64,000 nucleotides of DNA from Macrostomum lignano (Eukaryota), in the NCBI GenBank assembly GCA_002269645.1, contig NIVC01001247.1:282928-346927 (forward strand). Direction: 5' to 3'. Numbering within the stretch: the stretch's first letter is position 1; every line of letters starts with the position of its first letter. Made by a program: the position numbers and the translations under genes. Shown in pieces: positions 2,331-37,800 of the stretch. The notes under the pieces are model-generated. The model saw nothing but the letters and a program-made list of their open reading frames with translations, did no database searches and was not told the origin of the DNA.

Positions 2331-5300
2331 CTAGGGAAAAGAAGATGAATGGCTGTGTCTTTGCACGGCGCTGCCAGAAGCGGGACTTTGAGTCGCTGCC
2401 ACCAGAGACTGTCTTTGCACGGCGCTGCCAGAAGCGGGGCTTGGAGTCGCTGCCACCAGAGACTGTCTTTGCACGGCGCTGCCAGAAGCGGGGCTTGGAG
2501 TCGCTGCCACCAGAGACTGTCTTTGCACGGCGCTGCCAGAAGCGGGGCTTGGAGTCGCTGCCACCAGAGACTGTCTTTGCACGGCGCTGCCAGAAGCGGG
2601 ACTTTGAGTCGCTGCCACCAGAGACTGTCTTTGCACGGCGCTGCCAGAAGCGGGACTTTGAGTCGCTGCCACCAGAGACTGTCTTTGCACGGCGCTGCCA
2701 GAAGCGGGGCTTGGAGTCGCTGCCACCAGAGACTGTCTTTGCACGGCGCTGCCAGAAGCGGGACTTTGAGTCGCTGCCACCAGAGATCGTCTTTGCACAG
2801 CGCTGCCAGAAGCGGGACTTTGAGTCGCTGCACCAGAGATCGTCTTTGCACAGCGCTGCCAGAAGCGGGACTTTGAGTCGCTGCCACCAAAGACCGTCTT
2901 TGCACGGCGCTGCCAGAAGCGGGGCTTGGAGTCGCTGCCACCAGAGACTGTCTTTGTACGGTGCTGTCAGAAGCGGGGCTTTGAGTCTGGACTCCGGAAA
3001 GCAGCTGGCTTCCTGTGCGATGCGACCGCCCCTTTAATCGGTCACCGCCATGCTTTAGCTGCTGTCTGCAAGTATTTCTTACAGATTGTTCAGAGGGCCT
3101 GCCGGCTTCAGCGGTCGCGCCATAGATGAATGTGATTGCTTCTGTTAGGAAAAAAGTTGAAAGTTACTATGAATAGCATGCACTGTGCTCGACTAATTTC
3201 TTGATATTTAGCTCTAAAAGTCTCTTTAGGCCGTATGAATAAACTGAGCAAATGCTCCAACTCAAGCAAATGCTCAGGTCAATAAGAATAAGTTGAGCTT
3301 TTGCTCATGAGCAAATGCTCATGAGTAAATGCTCGTGAGCATTTGCTCCGACTCATGAGAAAATTCTCAGCTGCAGAGCAATTACTCCAGTCAGTAAGAA
3401 TAAAAACATGGCCATAGACAAAAGATCGGAGCAATTGCTCACAAAATGTTGAGACAGCTACCTAGCTGACTCAACTGGCAAGCAACTGCAGTTGAATAGC
3501 GGAATTTATGCCTGAAATCGCTCCTGCAAGGCGCAAGCTCTACCTTGAAAGGCTTTCGTCTGATGTCCTTCGAGATTGCGAGTACCAGCGGCTGTTCAGA
3601 TTCTCCCGCGACAGCGTTGACCTGCTCACGGCAAGCTTCCTTGACAACAGTCAGGAATCACGAGGGGGTGCTCTGTCACCTAAGGTGCGCATGGAAGTTG
3701 CTCTGCGATACCTGGCGAATCCTGGCTTTCAAACCGGCATCGCAAACGAGTTCAACATCCATCAGACAACCGTATCGAAAACTGCTTGGCATGTTGTGCA
3801 ACGAATTTGTGCTCAATCGCAACGATGGATCAAATGGCCGACACAATCTGAGCACCAGCTGCAGGAAGCCAAGCAGAACTGGTTCCAAAAGTTCCGGTAC
3901 CCGTCAGCAATCGGTCCTGTTGATGTCTGCCTTAGCCTTCAGTCTTGCCTTCATATTGGCCGGCTTTTTGTTTATTTTTTTTGAATACGTGCTCTTGCCA
4001 CTAAGCTCCAACTCGTTCTGGATAGATAGCAATGCTGCCTTTTTCTTCTCCGCGATACCAGGCGTCTTTGCTTTGTCAGCAAGACACGGATGGCGTATTA
4101 CGATATTCACAAACTGCTCGTCGCTGGCATCATCAGTATCCATTTCAGATCAGTGCTTGCTAAGCTGTGTTTGCTATGCTGAGCTATGCGGCTATGCAAC
4201 ACTATACTTAGCTTCGATCGTTAGTGAGTGCTGCCGCTTCTCTTGCTGCTGCTGCAGCTCTGCCTGTCTATGGCTTTAAGCAGCCAGGCTGCTGCTCAAG
4301 CGGTTGAGCAATTACTCTGAGTCTGAGTTTTTTGTTTATTCATACTGAATTGTTGCATTTGCTCTGACTCTGAGTATTTACTCAGCCTCGAGAAAATGCT
4401 CCAGCTCAGAGTGCGAGCATTTGCTCAAGAGCATTTGCTGATTTTATTCATACGGCCTAATGAACGTTGATTAAGTAGACTTACTTTGGAAATGGCTGAG
4501 CAGAGTGCTCTGAAATCCAAGCTGCGCATCAGCAAGGTTGGTCGCAACTCCAGCAGCAACAGCTCGGCTTCGCATGTCTGACCCGATTAAATTAATAACC
4601 GCCTGCATCTCTTTCGACAAGCTCTCGTTAAGCATTGCCATTAAAGCATCGGACCACTTGTCTCGCTTGCATGAACGTAGCAGGCTCTTCTGTTTAGATT
4701 TTTACAGGTGAGAATACTTATAGATTGTTATTTCACAGTGATAGTACTAGTGCGCTTTGAGTAGTAGTTAGAGCATTTCTTCTAATGAAAAGAAAATAAA
4801 AAACTCAGTCATGAACTTACCAAAGTAGAAATATGTTCATTTGGATTGGAAGCGAATTGCACATATTTTTCCCAGGAGTTGATCGGCCAGAATGAAGGCT
4901 CAGAATTATCAGTTGGAATGTCAGCGCCAACCGGTTCCAAAAAGCGTAGCACGCTCTGCACTTCAGTGCGCATTGCGGTGATTTGTTTGGTCAAACCATT
5001 TTCTAATGCTTTCAATTCATTCTTGCGCATAGTAAGTTCGCGTAGGGCATATAAGGACAGAAACTTGATGCCTCTTGGACTTTCCAGCTCAAAGCTAACA
5101 CCGGCTTGGATCTGCTCTTCTAGTTTTCTAGGAAAGCCAGAACCAAAATTAAAAGATGAAATGGTGGGAGGCGACTTAGGAATCGTCGATCGATCATCTG
5201 CTACGAACTCAGCTTCTATTTCAGCTTCCGCCTCAGCTTCCACCTCAGCTCCCATCTCAGCTTCCACCTCAGCTTCCGCCTCAGCTTCCGCCTCAGCTCC

Positions 5301-6212: not shown

Positions 6213-7284
6213 TGTAGCATGCAGACTAGACTATGCTAGTGCAAAACTGAGTACCAAATAAAGCAAGAGTTTGGAGCTCACACTATAGTTTATGCTTATT
6301 TAATGATTCAGTGGTTTAGGTTGCTTCTAGAAGCAATTGTCTTCTATAGTTCTTCGAATGAAAAAGGCCGCCCTGGCTTTTCCAATTTCATTGGCCCTAC
6401 CGTCCCCGCACCCATACCTGTCCAATCAGCGCGCACAAACCCCCAAAGGAATAGTTTTCAATTCTTCCCAGCTTTTGTTCATATACTTTCTTTAATACGA
6501 AATAAGCAATCGTAGTAATTACTGGACACGCGTGGTACCTGCGGTTTAGGCTACTGGTTTATTCTGGTTTTCTATTATTACTTCTGTTATTATGTACTCT
6601 AATTTGGTAGGTTGCTGCCACCAGACTAATGTCCCTTATAATAATAGTTTTAGATTAAAATAAGTGAGACAAGAGTCGACTTCATGGAAGATTATTGGAA
6701 TAAACAAACAAAAGAAAATGATATTATTGAACCAAATATGCAAAGATTTAAGCACTATTATTACTATGTTATTAGAACCGGTAGACTCCTGGTTCCTTTC
6801 CCTTACTTCTATCTAACTGACTGTACTAATTCCTATTCTCGGTAGACTCCGTTTTGACTAAGCGGTAGACTCCTCTTAGCCTCCCTATTTTACCCCGATC
6901 TTACCTTTTATACTTTCTTATATATATTCTTTTATTTTATAAAGGGGAGACTCCCTTAGTCTGGCTTATTTGAGACTTAGATCTCTTACAAATGTTGTCC
7001 AATGGACGGTCCTGAACAGGATGCTTTTCCCGAGGCCAAACAGCCTTTTACTAATAGAGAAACCCGCTAAGACTCGAATTCCCATAGCTTCAGATATTTT
7101 CCCGAAGGTGAACTACTAATAGTAGCGTAAAAGCAAAACTGCTTATTCTCGAATTCATGCTACTAAAATAATTCATCCCGACGAATGGCAAACGCCTTAG
7201 CAAAACTGCTTGAAACTAAACCCCCTACTACATTACTTTATTACAACAGTCAACTATCATCAAAGTCTGATTCGGACGAAAACA

Positions 7285-9288
7285 ATGACAAGGCAATTGA
7301 GGCGACAAGCAAATAAGGATTTGCTGGGCTTGTTCATGGAAGGAGAACAAGAAGCTTTGGAAGACATCGCACTGCAAGAGAAAAAAAGAAAAGTAGTCGA
7401 AGCAGATGATTCTGGGAGAGTCGCCGGTTTCATCGCTTCGGAGTCCTCTGTAGCAGAAGTCAATGAAGGTACGGATCCAGATCTTGGCAACGACAATGGC
7501 AGCTATCCTGATTTTGACGAGTTCGCGCGAGTTTGCAGCGATGAAGATGAGGAGATTGACAAGAAAGAGGATGACCGCTCTTTAGAAGATAAAATATTCG
7601 CCTTGCTGGTAGTCTACTTTTCTTGTTTCAACCTAAGTCGTGGATCTAAAAAATTCCTTGTTGATGGTCTAAGAGACATAGGCTTGCCTGCGCCGAAGTC
7701 TGTCAACTCTATTGAGGCCGTCATCAATGCTGGCGATCCAACGGAAAAATTGGAGTCCATGGGAAAAGGCCATTTTCGCTACATTTCGATTCTGAAAAAT
7801 CTAGAACTAATGTTTCGCAAAAACCAGCTGCACATGAAGCCAGAATATCTACAACACGATAGTGAAACTGAGAAGGTTTACAAAATTGAAGCCATCGTTA
7901 ATTTTGACGGCTTGCCTTTGTACCGAGCAAGCCACTTCGGTCTTTGGCCCATACTAATGTCTATTCCCAGCGTATTCAGCAGACCTTTTCCAGTAGCCGT
8001 ATGGGCTGGTTGTGGCAAGCCACCTCTGAATGATTATCTTCGACAATTTTGCGACGAGGCTAAACGTTTTCTTACGGGTCCCATAAAAATTATCGAAAAT
8101 TTAAGCATCAGCTTCTCGACTATCCGATTTGTTTGCGATGCGCCTGCTCGAGCCTGGGTCTCAGTAACTCAAGGGCACATGTCGTACGTCGGTTGCATGT
8201 ACTGCAGGGCTACTGGACCTTATACCGACAACAGAGTAACAATTTCAACGAGCGTCGGGGAGTCTCGTAGCAGCCAACAATACCGAGAGGGAAAGGAGTC
8301 TAACCAGGAAAATAAAAAAATCGCTCTATCGCCCCTTTTAAATTTGCCTAACATTAGTTTTGTCGATGCTTTTCCCCCTGACTACCAGCATGCCGTCTGC
8401 CTTGGAGTCACAAGGAAGCTATTTTACCTATTTTTCGACAAATCTAATGGCAAGAAGTGTCTCGTCTATCCCGGTCCGATGAGCCTATTGGGCGACCGAA
8501 TTACTATGGCTGCCGGTTGGACACCTTCAAACTTTCAACGAAGACCCCGGAAAATCGACTTGGAACTAAAGCACATGAAGGCTACTGAATTCAGACAGTA
8601 CTTGCTGTACCTAGGACCTGTCCTCTTCAAAGGCATTTTAAATGAAGAAAGGTATAACCACTTTCTTTACCTCCATTTCGCCATTTACGCATACTCCAAC
8701 GAAAGGTACTCCAAGTGGTGGACGCTGGCAAAAACTTGCATTGAAGTTTTTGTTGAACGGGCTGCCCATCTTTACGGCCAGAAGTTTATAAGTTTCAATC
8801 TTCACACTATTCTTCATTTGGATGAGTTTGTCCGAAAGCTAGGCAGTTTAAACAACTTTTCGACTTTCCCTTTCGAAAACTTTCTTGGATCTGTAAAGCG
8901 CCGCGTAAAGGTGACAAGGCACATGGCAGCGCATTCAGTTAAGCAGGTGCTCAGAGTTCGCGATCTTCTGTTGAATGAGCAGCGCATTCCACCGTTGAAA
9001 TTCAGCACAAAGCGAGGTGATAATTGTTGCATAATCGACAAAGTATGCGTCCTAATCGAAGCTGTAAGTGAAGCTAATCAAGTCACTGGCAGGATTTTAC
9101 ACCCAGTTGACAACATCTACGCCAACCCATATCCATCTTTGCGTCTGGGAATCGGCTTGTACAGGATGACATCTGGTGTTCTAACTGGCACACCTGAGCG
9201 AAAGTGCTGGATTTTGCCTGCGAATCTGCTTGCCAATCTTGCTGGAGCGGACAGGGATCCAGCAAGCCATTTTTTGTCATTCCTCTGA
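7285..9288 (+). CDS. CMC-type DDE transposase (~667 aa), uninterrupted
   Basis: Motifs FDGLPL..S..LWPIL, KP, CDAPAR..GH..Y.GC..C, DYQHAVCLGV, F.RRPR..KATEFR.YLLYLGP, NLHTILHL, FSTFPFEN; first ATG at 7285 aligns with start of the paralogue at 29248. Confidence 0.9.
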   Translation: MTRQLRRQANKDLLGLFMEGEQEALEDIALQEKKRKVVEADDSGRVAGFIASESSVAEVNEGTDPDLGNDNGSYPDFDEFARVCSDEDEEIDKKEDDRSLEDKIFALLVVYFSCFNLSRGSKKFLVDGLRDIGLPAPKSVNSIEAVINAGDPTEKLESMGKGHFRYISILKNLELMFRKNQLHMKPEYLQHDSETEKVYKIEAIVNFDGLPLYRASHFGLWPILMSIPSVFSRPFPVAVWAGCGKPPLNDYLRQFCDEAKRFLTGPIKIIENLSISFSTIRFVCDAPARAWVSVTQGHMSYVGCMYCRATGPYTDNRVTISTSVGESRSSQQYREGKESNQENKKIALSPLLNLPNISFVDAFPPDYQHAVCLGVTRKLFYLFFDKSNGKKCLVYPGPMSLLGDRITMAAGWTPSNFQRRPRKIDLELKHMKATEFRQYLLYLGPVLFKGILNEERYNHFLYLHFAIYAYSNERYSKWWTLAKTCIEVFVERAAHLYGQKFISFNLHTILHLDEFVRKLGSLNNFSTFPFENFLGSVKRRVKVTRHMAAHSVKQVLRVRDLLLNEQRIPPLKFSTKRGDNCCIIDKVCVLIEAVSEANQVTGRILHPVDNIYANPYPSLRLGIGLYRMTSGVLTGTPERKCWILPANLLANLAGADRDPASHFLSFL

Positions 9289-10475: not shown

Positions 10476-11694
10476 CCCTATTTCACTTTGAATAGAACGG
10501 CGATCAAATTGTGGCGGTCAAATGTACTCGTAGATGTAGTAGACCCGGCGGCCGCCCCCTTTGCCATGGCTAGACTTGCATATAAGGGGGGGTAAATTTT
10601 GAGCTTACTTTGGCTTTTTAGGCCAAAACAAAAATTTGGGCAAATCTGCCCCCACTACTTTAAAAATCCTGAATTGACCACCAAATCGGACTCATCTAAA
10701 TGAAAACTTAAGAATACAAGCAACATTGTACATGCGCTAGTGCTTAAGTAGTGGAGTATTAAAAAATATATTTTTTGTTGCGTTGATTTCGAAGATCAAA
10801 AGGTATTACTTATAAGTAGGTAGGCTAAAACGCACACTTTTGCGTTCACATCCAATTTCTGAAGTGTATGAAACTCAGAAAAATTTGCACGAGTTGCCTA
10901 TACCCCACTTTGGAGCTTGCAGCATTTTTTTCAAAGAGATGGCTGCTCAAAGGGTTAAAAGTTCAAGTTAGCTGTAGTATGAGGATTGGTCAATGCAAAT
11001 AAATAATGAGCTCATTATACAAGAAAATAATTAATAAGGATATCAATAGTTCGCCCCACTGTCCACTGCACGTACTGAAAGGCGTACTGTCAGGTTTGAG
11101 CACAAAAACACCCGAAACTAAAAAAATCAACTTTAAAAATTCTGCTCTTTACATAATTTCCTCACAAAAATATTTCATACGTACAAAGAAGAAAACCTAC
11201 AAACTTTTATCTTGCGGGATGGGGCGTACCCTTGAGGGCCGCCGTGGCGACGGCCTAGAGGGTACGCCCCAATTTTTCTAACCACTGGGTCTCTCCATCG
11301 CATAAAACTGTTCAAGATTTTCAGTGTATTAGCGCGGAAAATGTGATAAATCATTTTATGAATTCCCGCGCGGATGGAAAGATTTGAGTCAGAAGATTAT
11401 TTTAGCTTCCTGCTTCCTGCATGCTTAATTACCTGTGCAGAGCTAGTGGGGCATTGTACCATTCATTGGCAAGTTGGCGCAACTACATACATGTCTACTA
11501 TACACATGTACGTGCAGTAAATGTAATTACCGTCTGCTAACGTGCGTCGCATTTCCATTGCACGTTATATAATTTGAGTTGCTGTCTCAGGGAAGTGCCA
11601 GCTATAATGGAACCGGGGTAAGTCGTCTTCATGGTGCTGTCTTTATGGTAAGCTGTCTCTACTCATGGGGGTGCTGTCTTTATGGTAAGCTGTC

Positions 11695-13038
11695 ACTACT
11701 AAGCAACGGTAGATCCGCCCTTTTTGGAGGTGGGGTGGGTGTCAACCCTCCTCGCCTCTCATTGGCTGGCGCGCGCGCCGCAGGCGCGTGGCGCCAAGCG
11801 CCAATCAGGCGCCCATGCCGCAGGCGCACCCTCCCGATATGTACCGATATGTATCCCGCAGGCGCCCATGCCGCAGGCGCACCCTCCTCATATGTACCCC
11901 GATATGTATGCCCTCCCTCCCGGTATGTATGCCGCAGGCGCACCCTCCCTCCAGAGCAGCAGGCGCCCATGCTGCAGGCGCCCCATGCCGCAAGCACCCC
12001 GAGTGTACACTCTCCCATGCCGCTGGCGCCCCGAGTGTACACTCTCCCGAGCCGCAGGCACCCCGAGTGTTCACTCTCCCCAGTACGGGTGTACACTCTA
12101 CCACTCTCCCGATATGTATGCATACACAGATATCTAGTCAGCGATATTAGGCTAGTGAAAACTACTTATAGTAGATGAAATTGCGTATATTTACATAAAA
12201 AGTAGATAAAACATATTGGTAGGTGTGAATAATGACGCATAATGCATATTAAAATGTACATATTGGAGCATAATAGGAATATGAGCAGCAAAATACACAC
12301 AATGTAGGCGCATCAATATATTGACAGAAATAGACAAAGCAGGTACTGTAGGCGCTACATAGGTGGAAATACACACAGTATATTGCACACACTCTAGATT
12401 CCAATTATGTAGGTGCATACATACACACACTGTAGGTGCAAATTGAGTATAATACAGGAAAATTACATAGCATATAATGTAGGCGCATTTTAAACAATAC
12501 ATTTTTGCATAATAACCCGCAGGTACAAATTTCAGTGCATAGGCTAAAATACACACACTGCAAATTGAGTATAATGCAGGAAAATTGTGACATATACAAC
12601 ATATGTATGCAAATTAAGCATATAATGTAGGTGTAAAATACAAGCAACCGGCTCCCTAGTAAACAGACACGCCCCCAGAGCCAGGGCCGAGGGATCCCAA
12701 GTACAGTGCGGTCAGAGAGAAATTCCATTCCTCCCCAAGCCCTAAATAAGGTTTTTTCAAGGGGATCCCAAGTACAGTGCATGCAGAGACTGCATACAAA
12801 TAGGGTTATATTCAAGAGGGATCCCAAGTACAGTGCGCTCCCAGGTGTCAAATGATGCCCCAATGTACAGTGGAGGTAGAGTAACAGACCGCATACAAAG
12901 AGAATTCCAGTCAAACTTTACAGCACCTCCCACCCCAAATGAGGGTTTTAGTGGATCCCCAGAGGGTAGCTCTCCAAGTTGAGGGATCCCCCCGTGTGTT
13001 GCGAGGCCCAAGTACAGTGCAGGCAGAGAGTAATAGAG
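11695..13038. repeat. Left terminal inverted repeat (~1344 bp)
   Basis: Reverse complement of 19165-20509 with only a few differences seen (e.g. ~11887-11889 CTC vs CCG, 1-bp indel near 12993); ORF track mirrors. Confidence 0.95.
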
Positions 13039-13202: not shown

Positions 13203-16200
13203 TCACTCACGAAAGCCATACGGGCGGCTAGCGGCCCCATACACCCTCTTAGTCATTACACGTTGGAATGTCTTGTCCATCTCGAGGGTCCGGATTGTAC
13301 AGCTAGCCTTATCGCGCCTGAACTGGGCCTGGGGCAGCCGTACAGTCCCGCCGTGGCGCAGAATTTCCTGCAGCTCGTCCTCGCGCTCGGAAATCTCGGG
13401 GGTGACTCTGATGCCCTTGCACTTGAGCACCGAGTACAGCGACCCGTCGGGCTTCTCCACCACGTACCGGTAGAGCTTGGGGCCTCCCGTGGTGAACTGT
13501 ACCATGCGGCAGCCAGCAGGTACCTCGTCAGTCCACTGCCCCAAACTCGAACCGCCCGGAGGCTCGTACTCGCCCGGGGAGCAGCGGTATACGACCCTGG
13601 GAGGAGGAGAAGGATAAAAAAGTGTTAAGGGGAGAAAGAGAGACAGAGACAGTGAAAAAATTACTTACGAATCGGTATCGGCGTAAATGACGCGGGTTCC
13701 TAGACCCTCCAGAGACTCGTAGAGTCGCAGCCGGGCGTGGGAGGTGGTGAAAACGCCAATAGGTACATTGGCGTACTTGAACGCCCGCTCGCCAGCACCG
13801 CCAAATCGGGGCTTGTACTCGAGCATCATGAAGCTCTCCCCAATTGGCTCGCACGACTTGACCTTGATCGAGGGGTCTGTCAGGCGCTGCAGCCACGCCT
13901 CGTAGCTGTCCACAATCTCTGTGGAGGTCAGGTCGTCGCGCTGGCAGAACTTGCCCCAGAGCCTGCAGGGAAAAATAAATTTTTGTATATCTGGCTACTG
14001 TAAGTAGAAAAACACGGCCCCCACTGCAAGTAGAAAAACTTACGAGTTTAGAAAAATCTTGGCAACAAAGCGCAGGCCAGGATTTTCTTCCACCTTTTCC
14101 AGCCGGACGCCTTCGCGCTCGAAAAAGCTGGCCATGTAGGCAGCCTTGGCGTCCTCAGCCATCCCCGGCGAACCGCTAGACTCGGCTTTGAGCTTCAAAA
14201 AAGTGTTTACATAATCTGCAAACAGGCCCGTGCGAGTCTCGGTCCAATAGGCCAGGGCATGAACTGACTGCAGCTTGTAACCCAACTGCAGGGCCTTGTG
14301 GAGCTCTGGGGTCGACCACGTGCCGCGGAGCATTCTCTCAGCGTCAGTGTGTGTACACTCGCTGCTGCACTGGGTCTCCATGCAGACGCGGCAGAGGCCG
14401 AAAACCAGCTTCTTGTTAATCTTGGCAGGCAGTAGCGGGATGTGGAGATTGGTTGGCGGCAGAATCGACACCTCGGCGATGCCAAAATACCGGGCCAGCT
14501 GCTGCTCATCCAGTAGATGAGGCTCGGGGTGGTGTACCGGGTGCCCGACAGGGTACTTGTCAAACTTGTTGACAGTCGGGTAGAGCGACACCTAGGGGAT
14601 AAGGATAATAGAGAATTAGAGGATAAGATAAACTCAAACGCATGTCAACTGTGTGTACAAGTGTACAAACTTACCACATCCCGATAGCGCAGCTCTACAG
14701 TCTCGGTGGCCTCGGCGTGCGGGACAAAAGCCTCGGTACGGCCGCCAAACAGGGCATCCTCCAGGCGGATAGGCTGCTGGACTGGCGCTCCCTCGTCCTG
14801 ATAGTCGTGCTCCCACAGAACACGCACATTGTATGCAGTGGAGAGCAACCGGGTGAAGCGCTCAGTCTCCTCATAAATCGCCCGCATTGGCTGGTTCTTG
14901 AGCGGGTGCAGCACGTCGCCGTTGGGGAAGCACTTGGGACAGCCATGGAAGAAGCAGCCATGAAACTGCAGCACTGTCCTGGTCTCTGGGTCGAAGCCGT
15001 CGACCTTACGACCCATGGCGAAAGCCTCGCCGCCCGAGTCCGCTGTCCGCAACCGGCCGCCAAACTCGGTTGCATTCAAATGCGCAAGCCAGCACCGCGC
15101 CTTGTGCGACTGTACATCGGACCGGCGGGAAATCACCCCAAGAGTGTTGGGCTCCATAAACTTGGTGGTGAAAACAGCCATAGCCAAGCCCGCAATGGTG
15201 TTGGATTGAACAAATGCGTCCAGTCCGCAAATGTCCTTAATCAGGCGGGTGTACTTTAGACAGCCTTCCCGCAAAATTAACGTGTCCTGCAGGCAGTAGT
15301 CCAGGTACTCCTTATTGAAATTAAACACCTGTCCCTCCTGCTTGGCCAGCCAGTCTGCGATGGAGTCGTGCTGCTTGTTTTTCTTTCCTCCATACATATC
15401 AATTGAGCAGTAGGGTCCCACGTACCCCCAATTTTGTGGCTGATTGAACACGTGCGGGAAATCTCCTTTGGTCAGTTGGGTGCCCAAACCAAGCGCCTTT
15501 GGGAATTGCGCCAGACCAATAGGGATGAAGTTGAGGCTGTCCTTGAATGTTATCTTGTCGCACTTCATATACATTAGGCGGCTGTTCTGGAAGATCACTT
15601 GCGGCTTCTTCTTGGCCAGTCCGTTGAGTAGGGCGCCGAGCAGGAGGAATGCGTCATACGCAGAGCCATTGTGCGCAATAGCAATTGCCCCCTGCTTGAA
15701 CACACTAGTCAGCCAGCAGTAAAAGGCATCGATAGAGTGCGGCCCGACAGATACAAACTCTCGCATCCCACAGGCACAGTCATTGTGCGAGACACAGCTC
15801 GTGAAATCGAGCGCCAAATCGCGTCCCGCAATGCAATTGGCTGAGCTGTGTAGTCCCCCGCACACGCTGCAGCGGGACCTGGGGAAGAGTTTGGGACACG
15901 CCTCGCAGGAGGTGGCAGCCGTAACCAAGTGTACCCGGTGCTGCTTGCCAGAGTCCACGTACGTCTCGAAATCATAGTAAACATACGGGGCGCTAGACTC
16001 TTTGGCTTTGGGCGGGGTGACAAAGCACTCGTGGGTGGCAGTTTCGTCGTACTGCTTGCAGACTGGACACTTGGCGTAACCACACTGATGCTCAGGGGGC
16101 TGGCCTACTTTTAGTTCTTCTAGATAGCCACACGTGCCGCAAACGTGGACCGAATCACAGCGCGATCTGCCCGCCTTATTCTTGCGCTTGTGATTTTCTA

Positions 16201-18223
16201 GGCACTGAGCATTATAGCAATTTAGCCCGCAATCATGGCATCTTACATATGCGCGGTCTGCCTTGCAGTTGGAGCCCGGAGTCTTGCATGTACTGCAGGC
16301 GTCAGCGCACTTGTGCTCGGCGTTGGCGCAGTCGTAGGCCATCTCGCACTTGGCGCAGTAGTGATCAGAGCCGAAAAACGCAGGCAGCTTGGTGACCACA
16401 TTAAAGTGCTGCTCGACCAGGTGCAGGTGCAGAATCTCGGTGCCAGGCAGGTTGAAGATGCACCTGTTGGCCTCCTCTGCCCTGTACACTCGTACACCAA
16501 AATCGTGGCCTGGATGCAGCCGGTTCAGGGCACGGATCGCTTCGGGCAGTGCATCCAACCCGAAAGGACCGGCCTGCGAGACGGTTTGAAGAGTCTGTGT
16601 GGAGGGGTAAAATATTTCTTTTAGTATTCCCTGATACTGTGTAAAATTCTTTTAGTATTCCTTATCTTAAAAATTCTTATCAGAGTATGGTTCTTTTAGT
16701 ATTCCAGGACTGTGTAAAATTCTTGTCAGGAAAAATACTAGAAACTTACCGAGTAGAGGCCCGCTTCGATTTGCAGCTCAGCCACCAGATTAGTCTGCTT
16801 GGGCGAATTGGCCTTGATCGTGCGCCACACCTTCTCGGTGATGGACTTGGCCACGAATTGCAGGTAGGCGCAGGCCACGACCAGAGCGCGCAGCAGGCAT
16901 CTCTTGTCCGAGTTGGTGATGCGGACATAGTGCTTGGAGAAGGCGTGGCGCTCCTCTAGATGTTTGTTCTCGAGGGCGCAGCCACCTCGGGGCACCCAGG
17001 CTTTTAGCAGACGGATGGAAAAGTTGCCTGACAATACAGTGGCATCCGACTGCACAATCTTGTCAATGTGCTTAAACAACAATTCAGCCGTCATGCGGGC
17101 TGCACGCACCGGGGGAGTATGGGCTGCTTTGAGCATATTATCACTCTCGAATTTTGCAGCCATGAAATCCTCGGCGGCCAAATCTTGCTTAAAGACATCG
17201 AGCATGTCGGCAAACACCTCCCGCAAATCTTCGGTGTTGGTAATACGCACCACATACTCGACACCCTTTGCCCTAAACTTGGGCAGGTCACGCTGATTAT
17301 CCAGCCGGGCCGTAAAACCTGCATGGGGGAATGGGGGAGTGTGAGTCAGCCCGGGTCTGTCTGGGGAATGGGGGCTGGATAACTCACCCGGTCCGGTAAC
17401 AGATTCCGGCTGTGTTGGCGGGACAAACGCGTCTGAAAAAACACAAGGAGATAAAAAAACCAGAAGAATCTGTCATTTTCCTGGCCCCAGCATGTTCCTA
17501 TCAGTTCTCTGTCGCAGCAGTCCCAGTCTTTGTTGTTTACTCTGTAGCACCCCTCCCCTGCAACTCTCTGTTTTTTGCAGCAATTTCTTATCTGTACCCT
17601 GCATGCTGCGGCCTGTCTAGACAGCCCCTGCCAATTTCTTATCAGTCTGTCCCCGCGCTACACAGTCCCAGCAACTCTCTGCCCCCACCCGGCTGAAACT
17701 TGTCTAGCCCTCCCCCAACGATTATCTGTTACAGACCGCGCCAATTTCTTATCAGTACTCTGCCGCAGCACCCTAGCAACTGTCTGTTTTTGCAACAATT
17801 TCTTATCAGCTGCCGCACACCCCTCCCTGTCTGGACAACCCCCTACCCGAGGCCCCAGTCTTTGTTTACTCTGCTGTCCCACAGACCCTGCAGCTGCTGC
17901 TGCTGCTGCTAACCCGGCTGAAACTTGTCTAGCCCTCCCCTGCAACTCTCTGTTACAGACCCTGCCAATTTCTTATCTGCACCCCACCCTAGCAACTCCT
18001 GTCTAGACCCCTGCAGCTGTCGCAGCAGTCCCAGTCTTTGTTGTTTACTCTGCGGTCCCACAGACCCTGCAGCTGTCTCAGCAGCTCACCCCGTGCCGCA
18101 GTACCACCCCACCCTAGCAACTACAGTCTAGCCTAGACGGTCAGAAATTAATTAAAACTTACCATAAAGACGTTGCCTCTTGTCAGCCAGGAAAGCAGTT
18201 GCTGCGGCGCTGCGTTTAGCCAT
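13203..18223 (-). CDS. Protein-primed family B DNA polymerase (pPolB), 7 exons, ~1276 aa (1269 with alternative acceptor)
   Basis: Exons 18223-18163, 17432-17388, 17318-16750, 16594(or 16573)-14675, 14591-14044, 13962-13669, 13596-13203; all GT-AG and phase-consistent. ExoI YYDFET, ExoII IAHNGSAYD, ExoIII YCLQD, motif A YRDV|VSLYP, motif B KIFLNS|LWGKF, motif C YADTDS|VVY, KCKGI; N-terminal RITNSDKRCLLRALVVA typical of Polinton PolB. Confidence 0.93.
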
Positions 18224-18465
18224 TTTGCAAACAGAGAGCGTGAGAGAGCGGAGAGAGAAGGATTATCTCTCTACCCTGGCTCTGGGGGTCTGTATATATA
18301 CTAAAAAATCTGCTCAGCTCGCCTGCTATTGGTCAAATCGCCAAAAACCAACCAAAATCATCAAAAATCACCCCCAAAATCACCACCCACCCCACCCTCC
18401 ATCCGGGGGTATATAAGGCGCTGCACGGCTGTCAGAGAGCTCTCTGCTGCTGCTGCTGCTAAATC
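18224..18465. promoter_or_regulatory. Putative bidirectional promoter between polB and PC4-like gene
   Basis: 242-bp head-to-head spacer with TATA-like elements (GTATATATAC ~18291-18300; GGTATATAAGG ~18408-18418) and ATTGG/CCAA(T)-like motifs between them. Confidence 0.55.
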
Positions 18466-18963
18466 ATGTCTTCTATCTCTCTATACGAAAACTTTGTGGC
18501 GCGGAAGCCCACATTTGAAACTGAGCACAACTTGATTGAAATTCGGCGTCTCTACACCAACGAGGCTGGAGTGTGGAAGGACGGCTTCCCTGCAATCTAC
18601 TTGGCCGAGCCAGAGTGGAAGAAGCTCGAAGCTGCGCGCCCTGACCTGGAGGCTGCTGCCCGCCTTCACGTGAACAAGCGGGTCCTGTTGGGCAATTTCA
18701 AGGCAGTTGAAGCTTCGCGAGGGAGGATCCGTTTGCTGCGCAATTGGCTCAATCAGGACCCAAAGTTTAATTGGCGCTACACGATCGAATTCACGCCTGA
18801 ACTGTGGCGCAGGATGTTTGCCGCCCGTTTGGACAAGCTCTTCAAGCCGGCACCTGAGGCACCCCCTCCAGCCAAGCGAGTCAAGACAGAGGACAATCTG
18901 CAGGACTGCCTTGACAGCATCAAACCCTACCCTTGGGGAAATCTGTTTGACGAGGGTTGCTAA
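18466..18963 (+). CDS. PC4-like putative single-stranded DNA-binding protein, 165 aa, probably two PC4-like repeats
   Basis: LIEIRRLYTNEAGVWKDGFPAIYLAEPEWKKL resembles PC4 consensus (IDIR.YY...G...P.KKGISL...QW..L); second degenerate copy RIRLLRNWLNQDPKFNWRYTIEFTPELWRRM. Confidence 0.65.
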   Translation: MSSISLYENFVARKPTFETEHNLIEIRRLYTNEAGVWKDGFPAIYLAEPEWKKLEAARPDLEAAARLHVNKRVLLGNFKAVEASRGRIRLLRNWLNQDPKFNWRYTIEFTPELWRRMFAARLDKLFKPAPEAPPPAKRVKTEDNLQDCLDSIKPYPWGNLFDEGC

Positions 18964-19164
18964 TTGAGGCGTGCCGCATCCGTACAGCGCGAACCCGATT
19001 TTTGGTAAGCTTAATTTCATATAAATCGTATATAAATTACATATAATCTGTCTACATTGAATATTTTTTACTTTGACAGATGTTTCGAGAGCGCTGATGA
19101 GGAGGAGACTGCCCTGGCTGAAGATCGCGCTCGAGTTTGACTGATAAGGGAATTTCTCTTTGTA

Positions 19165-20509
19165 CTCTGTTACTCTCTGCCTGCACTGTACTTGGGCCTC
19201 GCAACACACTGGGGGGATCCCTCAACTTGGAGAGCTACCCTCTGGGGATCCACTAAAACCCTCATTTGGGGTGGGAGGTGCTGTAAAGTTTGACTGGAAT
19301 TCTCTTTGTATGCGGTCTGTTACTCTACCTCCACTGTACATTGGGGCATCATTTGACACCTGGGAGCGCACTGTACTTGGGATCCCTCTTGAATATAACC
19401 CTATTTGTATGCAGTCTCTGCATGCACTGTACTTGGGATCCCCTTGAAAAAACCTTATTTAGGGCTTGGGGAGGAATGGAATTTCTCTCTGACCGCACTG
19501 TACTTGGGATCCCTCGGCCCTGGCTCTGGGGGCGTGTCTGTTTACTAGGGAGCCGGTTGCTTGTATTTTACACCTACATTATATGCTTAATTTGCATACA
19601 TATGTTGTATATGTCACAATTTTCCTGCATTATACTCAATTTGCAGTGTGTGTATTTTAGCCTATGCACTGAAATTTGTACCTGCGGGTTATTATGCAAA
19701 AATGTATTGTTTAAAATGCGCCTACATTATATGCTATGTAATTTTCCTGTATTATACTCAATTTGCACCTACAGTGTGTGTATGTATGCACCTACATAAT
19801 TGGAATCTAGAGTGTGTGCAATATACTGTGTGTATTTCCACCTATGTAGCGCCTACAGTACCTGCTTTGTCTATTTCTGTCAATATATTGATGCGCCTAC
19901 ATTGTGTGTATTTTGCTGCTCATATTCCTATTATGCTCCAATATGTACATTTTAATATGCATTATGCGTCATTATTCACACCTACCAATATGTTTTATCT
20001 ACTTTTTATGTAAATATACGCAATTTCATCTACTATAAGTAGTTTTCACTAGCCTAATATCGCTGACTAGATATCTGTGTATGCATACATATCGGGAGAG
20101 TGGTAGAGTGTACACCCGTACTGGGGAGAGTGAACACTCGGGGTGCCTGCGGCTCGGGAGAGTGTACACTCGGGGCGCCAGCGGCATGGGAGAGTGTACA
20201 CTCGGGGTGCTTGCGGCATGGGGCGCCTGCAGCATGGGCGCCTGCTGCTCTGGAGGGAGGGTGCGCCTGCGGCATACATACCGGGAGGGAGGGCATACAT
20301 ATCGGGGTACATATCGGGAGGGTGCGCCTGCGGCATGGGCGCCTGCGGGATACATATCGGTACATATCGGGAGGGTGCGCCTGCGGCATGGGCGCCTGAT
20401 TGGCGCTTGGCGCCACGCGCCTGCGGCGCGCGCGCCAGCCAATGAGAGGCGAGGAGGGTTGACACCCACCCCACCTCCAAAAAGGGCGGATCTACCGTTG
20501 CTTAGTAGT
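19165..20509. repeat. Right terminal inverted repeat (~1345 bp)
   Basis: Reverse complement of 11695-13038. Confidence 0.95.
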
Positions 20510-21740
20510 GCTGTCTCTACTCATGGGGGTGCTGTCTTTATGGTAAGTTGTCTCTACTCATGGGGGTGCTGTCTTTGATCGGGTCGCTGTTTTGAATTGG
20601 GGTGCTGTCTTTGATCGGGTCGCTGTTTTGAATTGGGGTGCTTGCTGTCTTTGATCGGGTCGCTGTTTTGAATTGGGGTGCTGTCTTTGATCGGGTCGCT
20701 GTTTTAAATTGGGGTGCTTGCTGTCTTTGATCGGGTCGCTGTTTTGAATTGGGGTGCTGTCTTTGATCGGGTCGCTGTTTTGAATTGGGGTGCTGTCTTT
20801 GATCGGGTCGCTGTTTTGAATTGGGGTGCTGTCTTTGATCGGGTCGCTGTTTTGAATTGGGGTGTTGTCTTTGATAGGGTCGCTGTCTTAAATTGGGGTG
20901 TTGGCTTGATAGGGTCGCTGTCTTAAATTAGGGTGTTGGCTTGATAGGGTCCATGTCTTAAATTGGGGTGTTGGCTTGATAGGGTCGCTGTCTTAAATTG
21001 GGGTGTTGGCTTGATAGGGTCGCTGTCTTAAATTGGGGTGTTGTCTTTGATCGGGTCGCTGTTTTGAATTGGGGTGCTGTCTTTGATCGGGTCGCTGTTT
21101 TGAATTGGGGTGCTGTCTTTGATCGGGTCGCTGTTTTGAATTGGGGTGCTGTCTTTGATAGGGTCGCTGTCTTAAATTGGGGTGTTGGCTTGATAGGGTC
21201 GCTGTCTTATATTAGGGTGTTGTCTTTGATAGGGTCACTGTCTTAACTTGGGGTGTTGGCTTGATAGGGTCGCTGTCTTAAATTGGGGTGTTGGCTTGAT
21301 AGGGTCGCTGTCTTATATTAGGGTGTTGTCTTTGATAGGGTCACTGTCTTAACTTGGGGTGTTGGCTTGATAGGGTCGCTGTCTTAAATTGGGGTGTTGG
21401 CTTGATAGGGTCGCTGTCTTATATTAGGGTGTCGTCTTTGATAGGGTCACTGTCTTAACTTGGGGTGTTGGCTTGATAGGGTCGCTGTCTTAAATTGGGG
21501 TGTTGGCTTGATAGGGTCGCTGTCTTAAATTGGGGTGTTGGCTTGATAGGGTCGCTGTCTTAAATTGGGGTGTTGGCTTGATAGGGTCGCTGTCTTAAAT
21601 TGGGGTGTTGGCTTGATAGGGTCGCTGTCTTAAATTGGGGTGTTGGCTTGATAGGGTCGCTGTCTTAAATTGGGGTGTTGTCTTTGATAGGGTCGCTGTC
21701 TTAAATTGGGGTGTTGGCTTGATAGGGTCGCTGTCTTGGG
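20510..21740. repeat. 36-37-bp G/T-rich minisatellite, split by the Polinton-like insertion (two units also at ~11625-11694)
   Basis: 37-bp GCTGTCTCTACTCATGGGGGTGCTGTCTTTATGGTAA units grade into 36-bp GGGGTGCTGTCTTTGATCGGGTCGCTGTTTTGAATT and GGGGTGTTGGCTTGATAGGGTCGCTGTCTTAAATT variants. Confidence 0.95.
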
Positions 21741-28896: not shown

Positions 28897-29247
28897 GATA
28901 ACAAAAATAGTTTTTATATGCTATAGATGGATAGATATTTTATGAATTCGATGAGAATTCTTACATCTAGCTAATTTGATCTGATGCAAAGTGAAAAAAG
29001 CTCATTTGAGAAAATTTAAGCAAGGCTTCAGCTTCGAGAGGTTGGCACAGGGCGATCTCATTGGTTCCGAGCATTGATAAACTCAGGAACCAATTTCTAT
29101 TGGGTCTTACCAAATATCATGTATCTTCAACACATAATCGCATTCGACTTACCATAACCTATCTTAACCTTTCCTACCCATCTTTTTACCTGATTTACCT
29201 ACATACAATTAATAATCTACTACAGGTAAAAGCATCTTTCAAACAAA

Positions 29248-31197
29248 ATGTCTTCCAAGAAAAATTTGCAACGACTTGCAACAAAGCACTTGCTATCTTC
29301 ATTTGTTGATAAAGAAAAGAGAGAGCAGGACAAGGTCACCACAGAGGCATCAAGCGGAGCGGAAGAACAACGGATGGACGTCGATGAAGGTGACCAGGAA
29401 GAGTTAAGTAATGTTGACTTTGATGAGATGGAGTGGAATCGTGATGCAGACGACATCTCCGAAGATGACACCGAAGAAGAAGATAATCGGCCTTTAGAAG
29501 TAAAGCTAGAAGCATTGCTTCTTCTATTTCTCTCAACGTACAATATTTCTCGCAGCGCCATGGCTTTCCTTCTCGCCGGACTTCGAGAAATCGGCATTCC
29601 TGCTCCAAAATCTGTTTTCCGACTGGAACGGCTTCTGAAGAAAGAATTTCCTGTAGGGGAATTACTGGCCATGGGGGATGGACATTTTAAGTACATCTCA
29701 ATACTCAATAATCTCCAACTATTAACTCGTCATGGGTTACTGCAACTTGCGCCTGAAAATCTGCAGAAATCAAGTGGTTCAACAAAAGTGTACACATTTG
29801 AGGCCCACCTGAATAGTGACGGATGTCCTCTTTTCCGTGCGAGTCAATTTGGCTTGTGGCCATTATTAATGACAATTCCAAAAGCATTCGCTAAGCCATT
29901 TCCGGTGGCAATTTGGGCTGGTATAGGCAAGCCACCATTAAAAGAATATTTGCAAGAATTCTGCGCGGAGGCGACGATGTTCTTATCTGAACCCGTTAAA
30001 ATCTCCGATGAGATAAGCATCATGCTCTCCGCTATTTACTTTATATGCGACACCCCTGCGCGCAACTTCCTAATGTGCACATCCGGTCACACATCTTACG
30101 TTGGTTGTCAATACTGTAGAGCCGTGGGTTCACGTGACGACAACAGAGTTGTCTTTTCAACAACCATCGCCGAGAGTCGTTGTGGACAGATATATCGCGA
30201 AGGAGGTGAAAGCAATCAAGCTGAATCTAAAATATTGTCACCGCTGCTGCACTTGCCGAATATGGACTTCGCGAACTGGTTCCCACTCGATTTTCAGCAT
30301 GCAATCTGTCTTGGAGCCGTGAGAAAAATTATGAACTTTTATTTTGGAAAAGGAGGCTGCAAACATTCTAGGAAAACAGTTAAACATCTGTCGGACTACA
30401 TTGATGAAATTGCCTGCTGGACTCCAAGCAACTTTCAAAGAAGGCCACGGCGCATTGACAAGTGCTTGTCATTTCTGAAGGCAACTGAATTCAGACAGTA
30501 TGTTTTGTATCTGGGTCCTGTACTTTTTAAGAGATACATACCAGAAAAACTTTACAAAAACTTCTTACTTTTGCACTTTGCCGTGTTCTGCTACTCATCC
30601 GAGAAGTACTCTGAACTTTGGTCTCAAGCAAAAAGTTGTATCGAAGTCTTTGTAGAGCAATTGTCCAAAATGTTTGGCAAAAAAGCTATCAGCTACAACA
30701 TTCACGCTCTGCTTCATTTCGACTACTTTGTAAGGAAATTTGGTAATCTGAACAACTTTTCGACTTTTCCCTTTGAGAACTATCTTGGTTCCATAAAGAG
30801 GAAAATTAAAGTCACCAGGCATCCAGCTGCACATGCTGTTGTTCAAGCGCTCAAAGTTCGAAATTTGAATTTGAAGGATCATTGTCTCCCGCCCTTAAAG
30901 TACAGCACAAAGAAGGGTGACAACTGCTGCTTCGTTGGTTCGCAGTGTGTGCTAATTCAACACGTGACTATTAACGGCAAAGTGTCAGGTAGAATTCTGC
31001 GGCCTACTGAAAGCCTCTATACGTATCCATTCCCTTCGCTGCTTCTTGGAATTGGTGTATATCACCTGACATCCGAGATCACGACTGGACAACCAAGCCG
31101 CAAATGTTGGCTCCTACCCCATGCGACTTCGGCAGCAGCTGAGGGCGAGACAGTGGACTCATTCTATGTAATTCCACTAGCAGGGCACGATGAATAG
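29248..31197 (+). CDS. CMC-type DDE transposase (649 aa), uninterrupted
   Basis: SDGCPL..LWPLL, CDTPAR..GH..Y.GCQYC, DFQHAICLG, KATEFRQY, NIHALLHF, FSTFPFEN; colinear with 7285-9288. Confidence 0.92.
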   Translation: MSSKKNLQRLATKHLLSSFVDKEKREQDKVTTEASSGAEEQRMDVDEGDQEELSNVDFDEMEWNRDADDISEDDTEEEDNRPLEVKLEALLLLFLSTYNISRSAMAFLLAGLREIGIPAPKSVFRLERLLKKEFPVGELLAMGDGHFKYISILNNLQLLTRHGLLQLAPENLQKSSGSTKVYTFEAHLNSDGCPLFRASQFGLWPLLMTIPKAFAKPFPVAIWAGIGKPPLKEYLQEFCAEATMFLSEPVKISDEISIMLSAIYFICDTPARNFLMCTSGHTSYVGCQYCRAVGSRDDNRVVFSTTIAESRCGQIYREGGESNQAESKILSPLLHLPNMDFANWFPLDFQHAICLGAVRKIMNFYFGKGGCKHSRKTVKHLSDYIDEIACWTPSNFQRRPRRIDKCLSFLKATEFRQYVLYLGPVLFKRYIPEKLYKNFLLLHFAVFCYSSEKYSELWSQAKSCIEVFVEQLSKMFGKKAISYNIHALLHFDYFVRKFGNLNNFSTFPFENYLGSIKRKIKVTRHPAAHAVVQALKVRNLNLKDHCLPPLKYSTKKGDNCCFVGSQCVLIQHVTINGKVSGRILRPTESLYTYPFPSLLLGIGVYHLTSEITTGQPSRKCWLLPHATSAAAEGETVDSFYVIPLAGHDE

Positions 31198-34700: not shown

Positions 34701-34867
34701 CTGTGAAGCATCTGCATTTGGCCCCCTGTCTTTAGCAAACTCAGCATTGCTTTTCCTGTGCCTGGTCCCCTGGGTCCAGGAAACTGCTTTCTCCTGGTCA
34801 AGGAAGCTGTATTAGTAGACTTAACATGAAATTCTACAGATCACTAGAGCGTATCAGTCGGTGTCAT

Positions 34868-37800
34868 CTGTAGAATTTCATATTTGACTCTAGTAAAACA
34901 GCTTGGCAATTGCTGATTGATTATCCTGGATTTCCCGTATTTTAATGCATAGAAAATTTTCCGGAATCGCCGCCTTGGAATATCTAGAAAGCAGATTAAG
35001 CTAGAGACACGATTCTTTCTAGGGAAGATAGGGACTGACACGCTCTAATGATCTGTAGAATCTCATATTTGAGTCTTCTAATACAGCTTGGCAATTGCTG
35101 ATTGATTTTCGCGAATTTCACCATTTGAATGCATTGCAATTTTCTGGAATCGCCGTTTTTGAGTGAATATCTGGAAAGCAGATTAAGCTAGAGACACGAT
35201 TCTTTCTGGGAAGACAGGGACTGACACGCTCTAATGATCTGTAGAATCTCATATCTGAGTCTTCTAATACAGCTTGGCAATTGTGATTGATTTTCCTGGA
35301 TTTCCCTTATTTAATACATAGAAATTTTCCGGAATCTCCGCCTTCGAATATCTGGAAAGAGATTAAGCTAGAGACATGATTCTTTCTAGGGAAGACAGGG
35401 ACTGACACGCTCTAATGATCTGTAGAATCTCATATCTGAGTCTTCTAATACAGCTTGGCAATTGCTGATTGATTTTCCTGAATTTCACCATTTGAAATCA
35501 TTGCAATTTTCTGGAATCGCCGTTTTGAGTGAATATCTGGAAAGCAGATTAAGCTAGAGACACGATTCTTTCTGGGGAAGACAGGGACTGACACGCTCTA
35601 ATGATCTGTAGAATCTCATATCTGAGTCTTCTAATACAGCTTGGCAATTTGTGATTGATTTTCCTGGATTTCCCTTATTTAAATACATAGAAATTTTCCG
35701 GAATCTCCGCCTTCGAATATCTGGAAAGCAGATTAAGCTAGAGACATGATTCTTTCTAGGGAAGACAGGGACTGACACGCTCTAATGATCTGTAGAATCT
35801 CATATCTGAGTCTTCTAATACAGCTTGGCAATTGCTGATTGATTTTCCTGGATTTCCCTTATTTAAATACATAGAAATTTTCCGGAATCTCCGCCTTCGA
35901 ATATCTGGAAAGCAGATTAAGCTAGAGATATGATTCTTTCTAGGGAAGACAGGGACTGACACGCTCTAATGATCTGTAGAATCTCATATCTGAGTCTTCT
36001 AATACAGCTTGGCAATTTGTGATTGATTTTCCTGGATTTCCCTTATTTAAATACATAGAAATTTTCGGAATCTCCGCCTTCGAATATCTGGAAAGCAGAT
36101 TAAGCTAGAGACACGATTCTTTCTAGGGAAGACAGGGACTGACACGCTCTAATGATCTGTAGAATCTCATATCTGAGTCTTCTAATACAGCTTGGCAATT
36201 GCTGATTGATTTTCGCGAATTTCACCATTTGAATGCATTGCAATTTTCTGGAATCGCCATTTTTGAATGAATATCTGGAAAGCAGATTAAGCTAGAGACA
36301 CGATTCTTTCTGGGGAAGACAGGGACTGACACGCTCTAATGATCTGTAGAATCTCATATCTGAGTCTTCTAATACAGCTTGGCAATTGTGATTGATTTTC
36401 CTGGATTTCCCTTATTTAAATACATAGAAATTTTCCGGAATCTCCGCCTTCGAATATCTGGAAAGCAGATTAAGCTAGAGACATGATTCTTTCTAGGGAA
36501 GATAGGGACTGACACGCTCTAATGATCTGTAGAATCTCATATCTGAGTCTTCTAATACAGCTTGGCAATTTGTGATTGATTTTCCTGGATTTCCCTTATT
36601 AAATACATAGAAATTTTCCGGAATCTCCGCCTTCGAATATCTGGAAAGCAGATTAAGCTAGAGACACGATTCTTTCTAGGGAAGACAGGGACTGACACGC
36701 TCTAATGATCTGTAGAATCTCATATCTGAGTCTTCTAATACAGCTTGGCAATTGCTGATTGATTTTCGCGAATTTCACCATTTGAATGCATTGCAATTTT
36801 CTGGAATCGCCATTTTTGAATGAATATCTGGAAAGCAGATTAAGCTAGAGACACGATTCTTTCTGGAAAGACAGGGACTGACACGCTCTAATGATCTGTA
36901 GAATCTCATATCTGAGTCTTCTAATACAGCTTGGCAATTGTGATTGATTTTCCTGGATTTCCCTTATTTAAATACATAGAAATTTTCCGGAATCTCCGCC
37001 TTCGAATATCTGGAAAGCAGATTAAGCTAGAGACACGATTCTTTCTAGGGAAGACAGGGACTGACACGCTCTAATGATCTGTAGAATCTCATATCTGAGT
37101 CTTCTAATACAGCTTGGCAATTGCTGATTGATTTTCGCGAATTTCACCATTTGAATGCATTGCAATTTTCTGGAATCGCCATTTTTGAATGAATATCTGG
37201 AAAGCAGATTAAGCTAGAGACACGATTCTTTCTGGGGAAGACAGGGACTGACACGCTCTAATGATCTGTAGAATCTCATATCTGAGTCTTCTAATACAGC
37301 TTGGCAATTGTGATTGATTTTCCTGGATTTCCCTTATTTAAATACATAGAAATTTTCCGGAATCTCCGCCTTCGAATATCTGGAAAGCAGATTAAGCTAG
37401 AGACACGATTCTTTCTCTAGGGAAGATAGGGACTGACACGCTCTAATGATCTGTAGAATCTCATATCTGAGTCTTCTAATACAGCTTTGCAATTGCTGAT
37501 TGATTTTCCTGGATTTCCCTTATTTAAATACATAGAAATTTTCCGGAATCTCCGCCTTCGAATATCTGGAAAGCAGATTAAGCTAGAGACATGATTCTTT
37601 CTAGGGAAGATAGGGACTGACACGCTCTAATGATCTGTAGAATCTCATATCTGAGTCTTCTAATACAGCTTGGCAATTGCTGATTGATTTTCGCGAATTT
37701 CACCATTTGAATGCATTGCAATTTTCTGGAATCGCCATTTTTGAATGAATATCTGGAAAGCAGATTAAGCTAGAGACACGATTCTTTCTGGAAAGACAGG

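Follow-up and report, generated by a model that had tools for sequence, protein, structure and literature searches.

The question raised by this locus is what kind of DNA carries a polymerase of viral type that is cut into seven exons in an animal genome. The stretch analysed, hereafter the window, comprises 64,000 nt of the flatworm Macrostomum lignano (GenBank assembly GCA_002269645.1, contig NIVC01001247.1, positions 282,928 to 346,927 of the forward strand), and its positions 13,203 to 18,223 hold the gene of a DNA polymerase of family B that uses a protein primer (pPolB), similar to those of Polintons (Mavericks). This gene lies in an 8.8-kb element, which in our opinion, with a probability of about 0.8, is the replication half of a Polinton split in two linear DNAs, with a spliced pPolB, the other half being an element of about 10 kb with the same tips, which encodes the integrase and the virion proteins.

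The 8.8-kb element, assigned to type A, is delimited as follows:

11689..11694, no strand: left 6-bp target-site duplication gctgtc, read from sequence
11695..13038, plus strand: left terminal inverted repeat, starting with ACTACT, its first 23 nt shared with capsid/integrase elements
18466..18963, plus strand: PC4-like gene of 165 aa, divergent from pPolB, its product predicted to bind single-stranded DNA
19005..19079, plus strand: GT-AG intron of 75 nt located 3' of the stop of the PC4-like gene, its joint found in 4 of the 4 runs described below
19165..20509, minus strand: right terminal inverted repeat, ending with AGTAGT, 99.7% identical to the left one (1346 nt)
20510..20515, no strand: right 6-bp target-site duplication gctgtc, read from sequence

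No gene besides pPolB and the 165-aa PC4-like open reading frame (ORF) was found in the window element. Capsid, packaging ATPase and protease genes are absent from A, and no rve integrase was detected in the 8.8-kb element or in the other A copies tested.

The pattern of the tips was matched 39 times in forward and 41 times in reverse orientation, and 0 times in the control. Elements bounded by these tips carry pPolB with the PC4-like gene, or a capsid module with an integrase, or no gene, and never both sets. Type A elements, 8.4–10.5 kb long, contain pPolB and the PC4-like gene. Type C elements of about 10.3 kb contain ATPase-like, protease-like, major capsid and putative minor capsid genes, an rve integrase, TBP-like and Fic genes and unknown ORFs, and no pPolB was found on them. 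Type B is non-coding and consists of a 3.4-kb unit or of fold-back dimers. The lengths of A and C sum to about 19 kb. For the C major capsid protein a double jelly roll fold was predicted (pLDDT 92), matching the major capsid protein of PBCV-1 with E 9e-18; the fold from a single sequence had pLDDT 35, and no sequence match for this capsid was found in PDB. The integrase is supported by an rve match (E 1e-9), the ATPase and the protease by weak Pfam matches. The TBP-like protein of C elements was recognised with E 1.5e-4, and a Fic-domain protein, seen in family 1, with E 4e-14 (locus L085:2112-2606 and 4146-4949).

This plan is repeated in a sister family 2, in which A2, C2 and B2 have ACTACGTA tips and the ends are ACTACGTA...TACGTAGT. 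Exact 6-bp duplications flank A1 (13/13), C1 (5/6) and B1 (5/6) elements of family 1, and A2 (6/6, with one more lacking a matching tip), C2 (4/4) and B2 (11/13) elements of family 2. Three 23-nt tip variants, the window's own included, are common to A1 and C1, the sequence diverging just inside, and identical 16-nt tip variants were found on A2 and C2. Judged by sequence, the gene sets of A and C complement each other and are placed on different DNAs that have termini in common, as would be expected of a bipartite virus-like replicon. A protein search, in which all 134 candidates were scored, revealed 56 family 1 and 40 family 2 polymerase loci, assembly duplicates included, and a DNA search gave A copies with 91–100% identity (40 of 112 candidates scored). 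When 59 capsid loci, from the 135 of 380 candidates scored, were compared with the 96 polymerase loci, three pairs shared a contig, at distances of 47, 166 and 469 kb. The copy number and the target duplications rule out a domesticated single-copy host gene, and the original prediction of long nuclear residence, if taken to mean a settled resident gene, is not supported, this being a mobile element in many copies whose target duplications are exact.

A could also be a self-copying satellite borrowing the integrase of a one-piece Polinton, with C elements arising as independent deletion derivatives. One-piece Polintons with pPolB, integrase and capsid do occur in this genome, and the non-coding satellites with these tips indicate that tips alone suffice for mobilisation. 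However, the one-piece elements have AGTAGT, not ACTACT, at the left end or close to it, and a quick tree places their capsids, of about 30% identity, apart. A and C, on the other hand, have in common tips and tip variants peculiar to the family and have diverged in parallel, so that we consider this borrowing improbable. Even less credit can be given to the view that a one-piece Polinton, unassembled or extinct, has decayed into A and C, which would no longer form a working pair. Many copies are indeed broken, rearranged or interrupted by inserted transposons, and the candidate search was incomplete, but both halves have their own paired tips, exact duplications at many sites and signs of purifying selection, and the same split is seen in a family near synonymous saturation.

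Two other candidates were rejected. Type B is not a third coding segment in family 1, as its 14 copies show no codon periodicity and many indels; the family 2 satellites gave no gene matches. Some C elements of 13.9 kb, considered as joined A and C, have no pPolB, and one of their inserts is a P-element-like transposase. THAP/P-element-like transposases were found inserted in C1 (L082:3756-6698, supported by Pfam) and in A2 (L171:2746-5645), and in one family 2 element each inverted repeat contains a dUTPase gene (E 7e-31; L171:795-1316). Integrated elements of types A and B include almost perfect fold-back palindromes, at L066, L069, L076-L077, L078, L088, L095, L163 and L177, most of them with target duplications; these resemble defective copy-back genomes. 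A minimal family 2 element of about 250 bp (L175) contains little beyond two tips and has an exact 6-bp duplication. A third capsid/integrase family, with a capsid about 30% identical, was noticed at L136, L191 and L195; in the flanks read, the only polymerase trace was a 35-aa C-terminal match, and it is possibly another polymerase-less type.

The polymerase gene itself is arranged on the minus strand as listed below.

18163..18223, minus strand: exon 1, coding part from ATG (sequence and transcript-like contigs)
17433..18162, minus strand: intron 1, 730 nt, 488-1188 nt across copies (sequence, contigs, genomic copies)
17388..17432, minus strand: exon 2 (sequence and contigs)
17319..17387, minus strand: intron 2, 69 nt (sequence and contigs)
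16750..17318, minus strand: exon 3, with a predicted terminal-protein region and an OTU-like Cys motif DKRCL, assigned by the domain order of PMC11161782
16595..16749, minus strand: intron 3, 155 nt (sequence and contigs)
14675..16594, minus strand: exon 4, 640 aa, with a Cys-rich region and exonuclease motifs YDFE and AHNGSAYD (sequence, Pfam)
14592..14674, minus strand: intron 4, 83 nt, within motif A (YRDV/VSLYP), phase 0 (sequence, contigs, genomic copies)
14044..14591, minus strand: exon 5, PF03175 (sequence, Pfam)
13963..14043, minus strand: intron 5, 81 nt, within motif B (FLN-S), phase 2 (contigs of 4/4 runs, genomic copies)
13669..13962, minus strand: exon 6 (sequence and contigs)
13597..13668, minus strand: intron 6, 72 nt, within motif C (DTD-S), phase 2 (contig in one run, genomic copies)
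13203..13596, minus strand: exon 7, from the end of motif C to the stop (sequence and contigs)

When the exons were translated separately, each was stop-free in the phase carried over; together they make 3831 nt, or 1276 codons and a stop, and all six introns have GT..AG ends. Phases and exon sums therefore confirm the seven-exon gene of about 1276 aa with introns in motifs A, B and C that had been proposed from the sequence. These motifs can be aligned with those of homologues, as expected of a protein-primed family B polymerase. Pfam DNA_pol_B_2 (PF03175) matches exons 4 and 5, and exon 4 lies in a stop-free frame of 668 aa with a PF03175 E value of 1e-17. Among the nearest database proteins, 39 of 49 are labelled Macrostomum lignano (39 UniRef models). 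The gene is thus visible to ORF-based screens, contrary to an earlier suggestion. No close relatives were found in viral and metagenome contigs by exon-5 alignment searches. An insert in exon 4, DGF..FHGC, is presumably a VSR-like nuclease, judged by this motif.

Spliced joints were read from assembled contigs of four runs from four studies, these runs being probable RNA only, with none of those listed recorded as RNA, and genomic copies served as the control. All six pPolB joints were present in RNA-like contigs of at least one run each, so that the expectation of real splicing was borne out by the junctions. Contigs skipping introns 1, 2 and 4 were found in three of the four runs each, and those skipping intron 5 in all four. 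The intron 3 joint was exact in one run, while the other three had variant letters at the same joint, and the intron 6 joint was seen in one run, in a single contig of 1615 nt that spans introns 4, 5 and 6. The alternative acceptor of intron 3 at 16574 is unused in the contigs. Since the acceptor used is 16595, giving 155 nt, the five short introns measure 69-155 nt; the sizes of 730 nt and of 69 nt as the minimum agree with those given before, and the maximum of 176 nt does not. GT-AG ends and exact removal, in runs that are probable RNA, are characteristic of U2-type spliceosomal introns. Contigs of two probable-RNA runs extend over the whole C element and show no joints of splice type, and those of a third are patchy; no CT..AC joints on this element were found in the contigs, and two skips in one run proved not to be splice-like.

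These introns are old. In introns 4-6, GT..AG is kept in 29 of 29 further genomic copies, and in introns 1-6 in all covered copies (17-21 per intron) of 23 whole-element loci, a set overlapping the former; no intronless copy of this pPolB family was found among the covered genomic copies. The family 2 pPolB, whose exons are 53-73% identical in amino acids, has introns at the same six positions (introns 3-6 were read in three loci, introns 1-2 in one), and introns 3-6 of the two families are no more similar than shuffled sequences. The ratio of nonsynonymous to synonymous substitution rates (dN/dS) is 0.12 within A1, where 20 loci were pooled against the window copy and the pairs are non-independent, 0.12 between A1 and A2, 0.11 between C1 and C2, and 0.22 within C1. 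Between the families, the A half has a synonymous divergence of 0.73 and the C half a similar one of 0.69, near saturation. The comparison of intron positions among relatives thus yields six equivalent sites at near-saturated synonymous divergence, and both the age of the introns and purifying selection at a dN/dS of about 0.12 were correctly anticipated by the original prediction. In this assembly, an intronless relic (L181), whose polymerase belongs to this class, has the three motifs unbroken, and the polymerases of two one-piece Polintons, 1016 and 1112 aa long, are each encoded by a single ORF. Because of this relic, these single-ORF polymerases and the mostly unbroken motifs of homologues, the simplest reading is intron gain on this lineage; we infer that the introns were gained before families 1 and 2 separated and were then kept.

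According to the mechanism that we propose, the host RNA polymerase II and spliceosome would produce the pPolB mRNA in the nucleus, and the spliced product would be a polymerase with terminal-protein, OTU, exonuclease and palm parts, if the domain order of PMC11161782 applies. Together with the PC4-like protein, it would copy whatever DNA bears the tip of its family, A, C and B included, starting at these common tips through protein priming with strand displacement. The rve integrase encoded by C would insert A, B and C in trans, and C may also package all three. Tip variants could pass between the pieces during joint replication, and the fold-back copies would fit template switching in the course of strand displacement.

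Why three introns lie in catalytic motifs is a separate problem. When the 1273 positions of an alignment of 29 non-redundant homologues, mostly vertebrate, are ranked by conservation, motifs A, B and C form peaks 1, 2 and 5, and introns 4-6 are situated on them; the chance that at least 3 of 6 introns fall at positions so conserved is about 7e-4, calculated post hoc. This test supports a non-random placement in motifs. A search for the pattern of an intron donor in motif C gave 21 metagenome and 8 viral loci, and 27 of these 29 were unrelated. The remaining two are metagenome contigs that are near-identical (L222 and L227:1547-3267, treated as a single case); their pPolB is very divergent, and its PF03175 match (E 3e-4) is weaker than the cut-off. 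Its motifs A and B contain predicted introns of 51-54 nt that have in-frame stops and lie a few codons away from those of the window gene; besides these, the motif-C intron, for which the search selected, and about three others are predicted, the predicted introns measuring 38-61 nt overall. The intron positions at motifs A and B differ between the lineages.

To explain this preference, we tentatively favour, at rather less than even odds, an origin by repair of nuclease cuts: homing-type nucleases would cut the DNA of conserved motifs, repair would insert an intron, and splicing would rescue the gene while the cut site is destroyed. The resident pPolBs carry endonuclease-VII domains or the VSR-like insert, and motifs of this kind are also preferred sites of inteins and self-splicing introns. 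Rather unlikely is a random gain of introns with retention of the ones in motifs, either because they interrupt the most conserved DNA and so shield it against targeting by small RNAs or against recombination with other Polintons, or as a safety catch dependent on splicing. The other three introns lie in the poorly conserved N-terminal region, so that intron gain was not confined to motifs, as random gain implies; yet a safety catch needs no motif site, because any stop-bearing intron blocks the protein, and small RNAs would presumably meet the motif restored by splicing in mRNA. More doubtful still is a descent in which the motif introns began as inteins or self-splicing introns homing to these motifs and turned spliceosomal afterwards. 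The three intron sites are, we assume, about three codons or less from PolB intein sites, and introns 2-6, with 69-155 nt, are short for group I or group II introns or inteins. Inteins and self-splicing introns do prefer conserved motifs, and in family B polymerases their insertions cluster in those of the catalytic domain (PMC3159444, PMC4760082). Unlike them, the introns found here are short, of host GT-AG type and without a nuclease ORF; those in motifs are AT-rich, 72-83 nt long, with ordinary GTAAGT donors, and the varying positions in motifs A and B also speak against such descent.

A broader view combines these elements as a bipartite endogenous double-stranded DNA virus of animals, with co-replicating Polinton segments that swap 23-nt tips and integrate independently, non-coding satellites, and motif introns serving as armour against the nucleases of competing Polintons and recurring in unrelated pPolB lineages; as a whole, it appears possible but clearly less likely than its failure.

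Several points weigh against the split Polinton with a spliced polymerase and against the origin proposed for its introns. Free linear DNA, terminal protein or particles have not been seen. The RNA identity of the runs is a guess, and the contigs of the capsid half could be DNA, because their coverage is flat and low. The terminal sequence shared by A and C amounts to only about 23-38 nt; a joined A and C element could be missed, since 135 of 380 capsid candidates were scored and the assembly consists of 5269 contigs; and the same genome contains the one-piece Polintons mentioned above. All three motifs are contiguous in 140 of 183 homologues, and a fish-type homologue has the VSR-like insert and no introns, from which it follows that the introns are not required. 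The P value of their placement is post hoc. The cut-and-repair origin is without direct support, and GGNCC occurs 27 times in the A element against 41 expected; absolute avoidance of this site was rejected, the avoidance being only mild.

Among known systems, Polintons/Mavericks are the closest (Alpha-class adintoviruses; VSR-type pPolB2, 10.1101/2023.08.22.554363). As in them, A has a PF03175 pPolB, long inverted repeats and 6-bp duplications, and its partner C has an rve integrase, a double-jelly-roll capsid and ATPase-like and protease-like ORFs. Repeats of 1346 nt and duplications of 6 bp are within the Polinton ranges of 100-1500 bp and 5-8 bp. Unlike in Polintons, defined by an rve integrase and pPolB in one element (PMC5499653), the polymerase here lies apart from the genes for integrase and capsid, and six spliceosomal introns interrupt pPolB, whereas intact vertebrate Mavericks are intronless (PMC8097293). 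A is 8.8 kb long against 13-25 kb and lacks an integrase in the same element, virion genes and the intronless ORFs of vertebrate elements; it is not a Polinton as defined and works like the replication half of one. Vertebrate end motifs are of the AGTAGT...ACTACT, AGAGAG...CTCTCT and ACACA...TGTGTGT types (PMC8097293), and in contrast to them the motif of family 1 is reversed (ACTACT...AGTAGT) and that of family 2 is ACTACGTA...TACGTAGT.

Bidnaviruses also combine a segmented genome with an Alpha-class pPolB and shared termini (PMC8502044, PMC11071296), but their NS1 is that of a parvovirus and their capsid a single jelly roll, while here the capsid is of double-jelly-roll type, the integrase is of retroviral type and each segment is integrated; no match to the NS1 family was found among the C ORFs scanned. 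Introns of spliceosomal type in integrated elements are known from the introner-bearing Polinton-like viruses of dinoflagellates, where they come from active intron-generating transposons and mostly appeared after integration (PMC12166617). In contrast, the introns considered here are old, unrelated in sequence between families, present in all covered copies and clustered in motifs. Linear pPolB plasmids (PMC11161782) are likewise capsid-less linear DNAs with inverted repeats and pPolB, whereas the present element is nuclear, spliced and integrated with target duplications, and no RNA polymerase gene was seen in it. Neither a bipartite Polinton nor an animal pPolB with spliceosomal introns was found in the available parts of the literature searched, a scope outside which RepBase and supplementary tables lie.

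This lineage breaks both Polinton rules, that of a one-element gene set and that of intron-free genes. Since searches for Polintons expect one element that combines polymerase and integrase and has intron-free genes, screens for co-location would miss it; one such screen requires five genes within 20 kb (10.1101/2023.08.22.554363), and screens that require all core genes within 20 kb would pass over the element. A segmented integrating double-stranded DNA element in a laboratory flatworm is a tractable case for studying the origin and persistence of multipartite genomes. The repeated intein-like placement of introns in catalytic motifs, if true, would lead to a testable mechanism of spliceosomal intron gain.

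As to the second gene of the A element, no Pfam PC4 match to the 165-aa window protein was found, and the label PC4-like is based on an atlas lead (0.88) and on the family 2 homologue, 44% identical, which matches Pfam PC4 with E 1e-5. A TATA-like word lies ahead of this gene at 18410-18416. In some A copies (L097:1398-2525, L099:7539-8549, L118:1366-2430) the PC4-like gene is followed by a third ORF, acidic and of low complexity, 340-376 aa long and without a Pfam match; it is absent in the window copy, whose inverted repeats are longer. The window element is inserted in a minisatellite of about 35 nt, units of which are found on both sides of the duplication (11630-11694 and 20510-21740).

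Elsewhere in the window, seven long frames free of stops, of 438-695 aa, lie in the regions 7201-9288, 29230-31197 and 40754-52533, none of them with a significant Pfam match. A satellite array occupies 34800-40140 and is built of 183-188-nt units, which form a two-unit higher-order repeat of about 371 nt.

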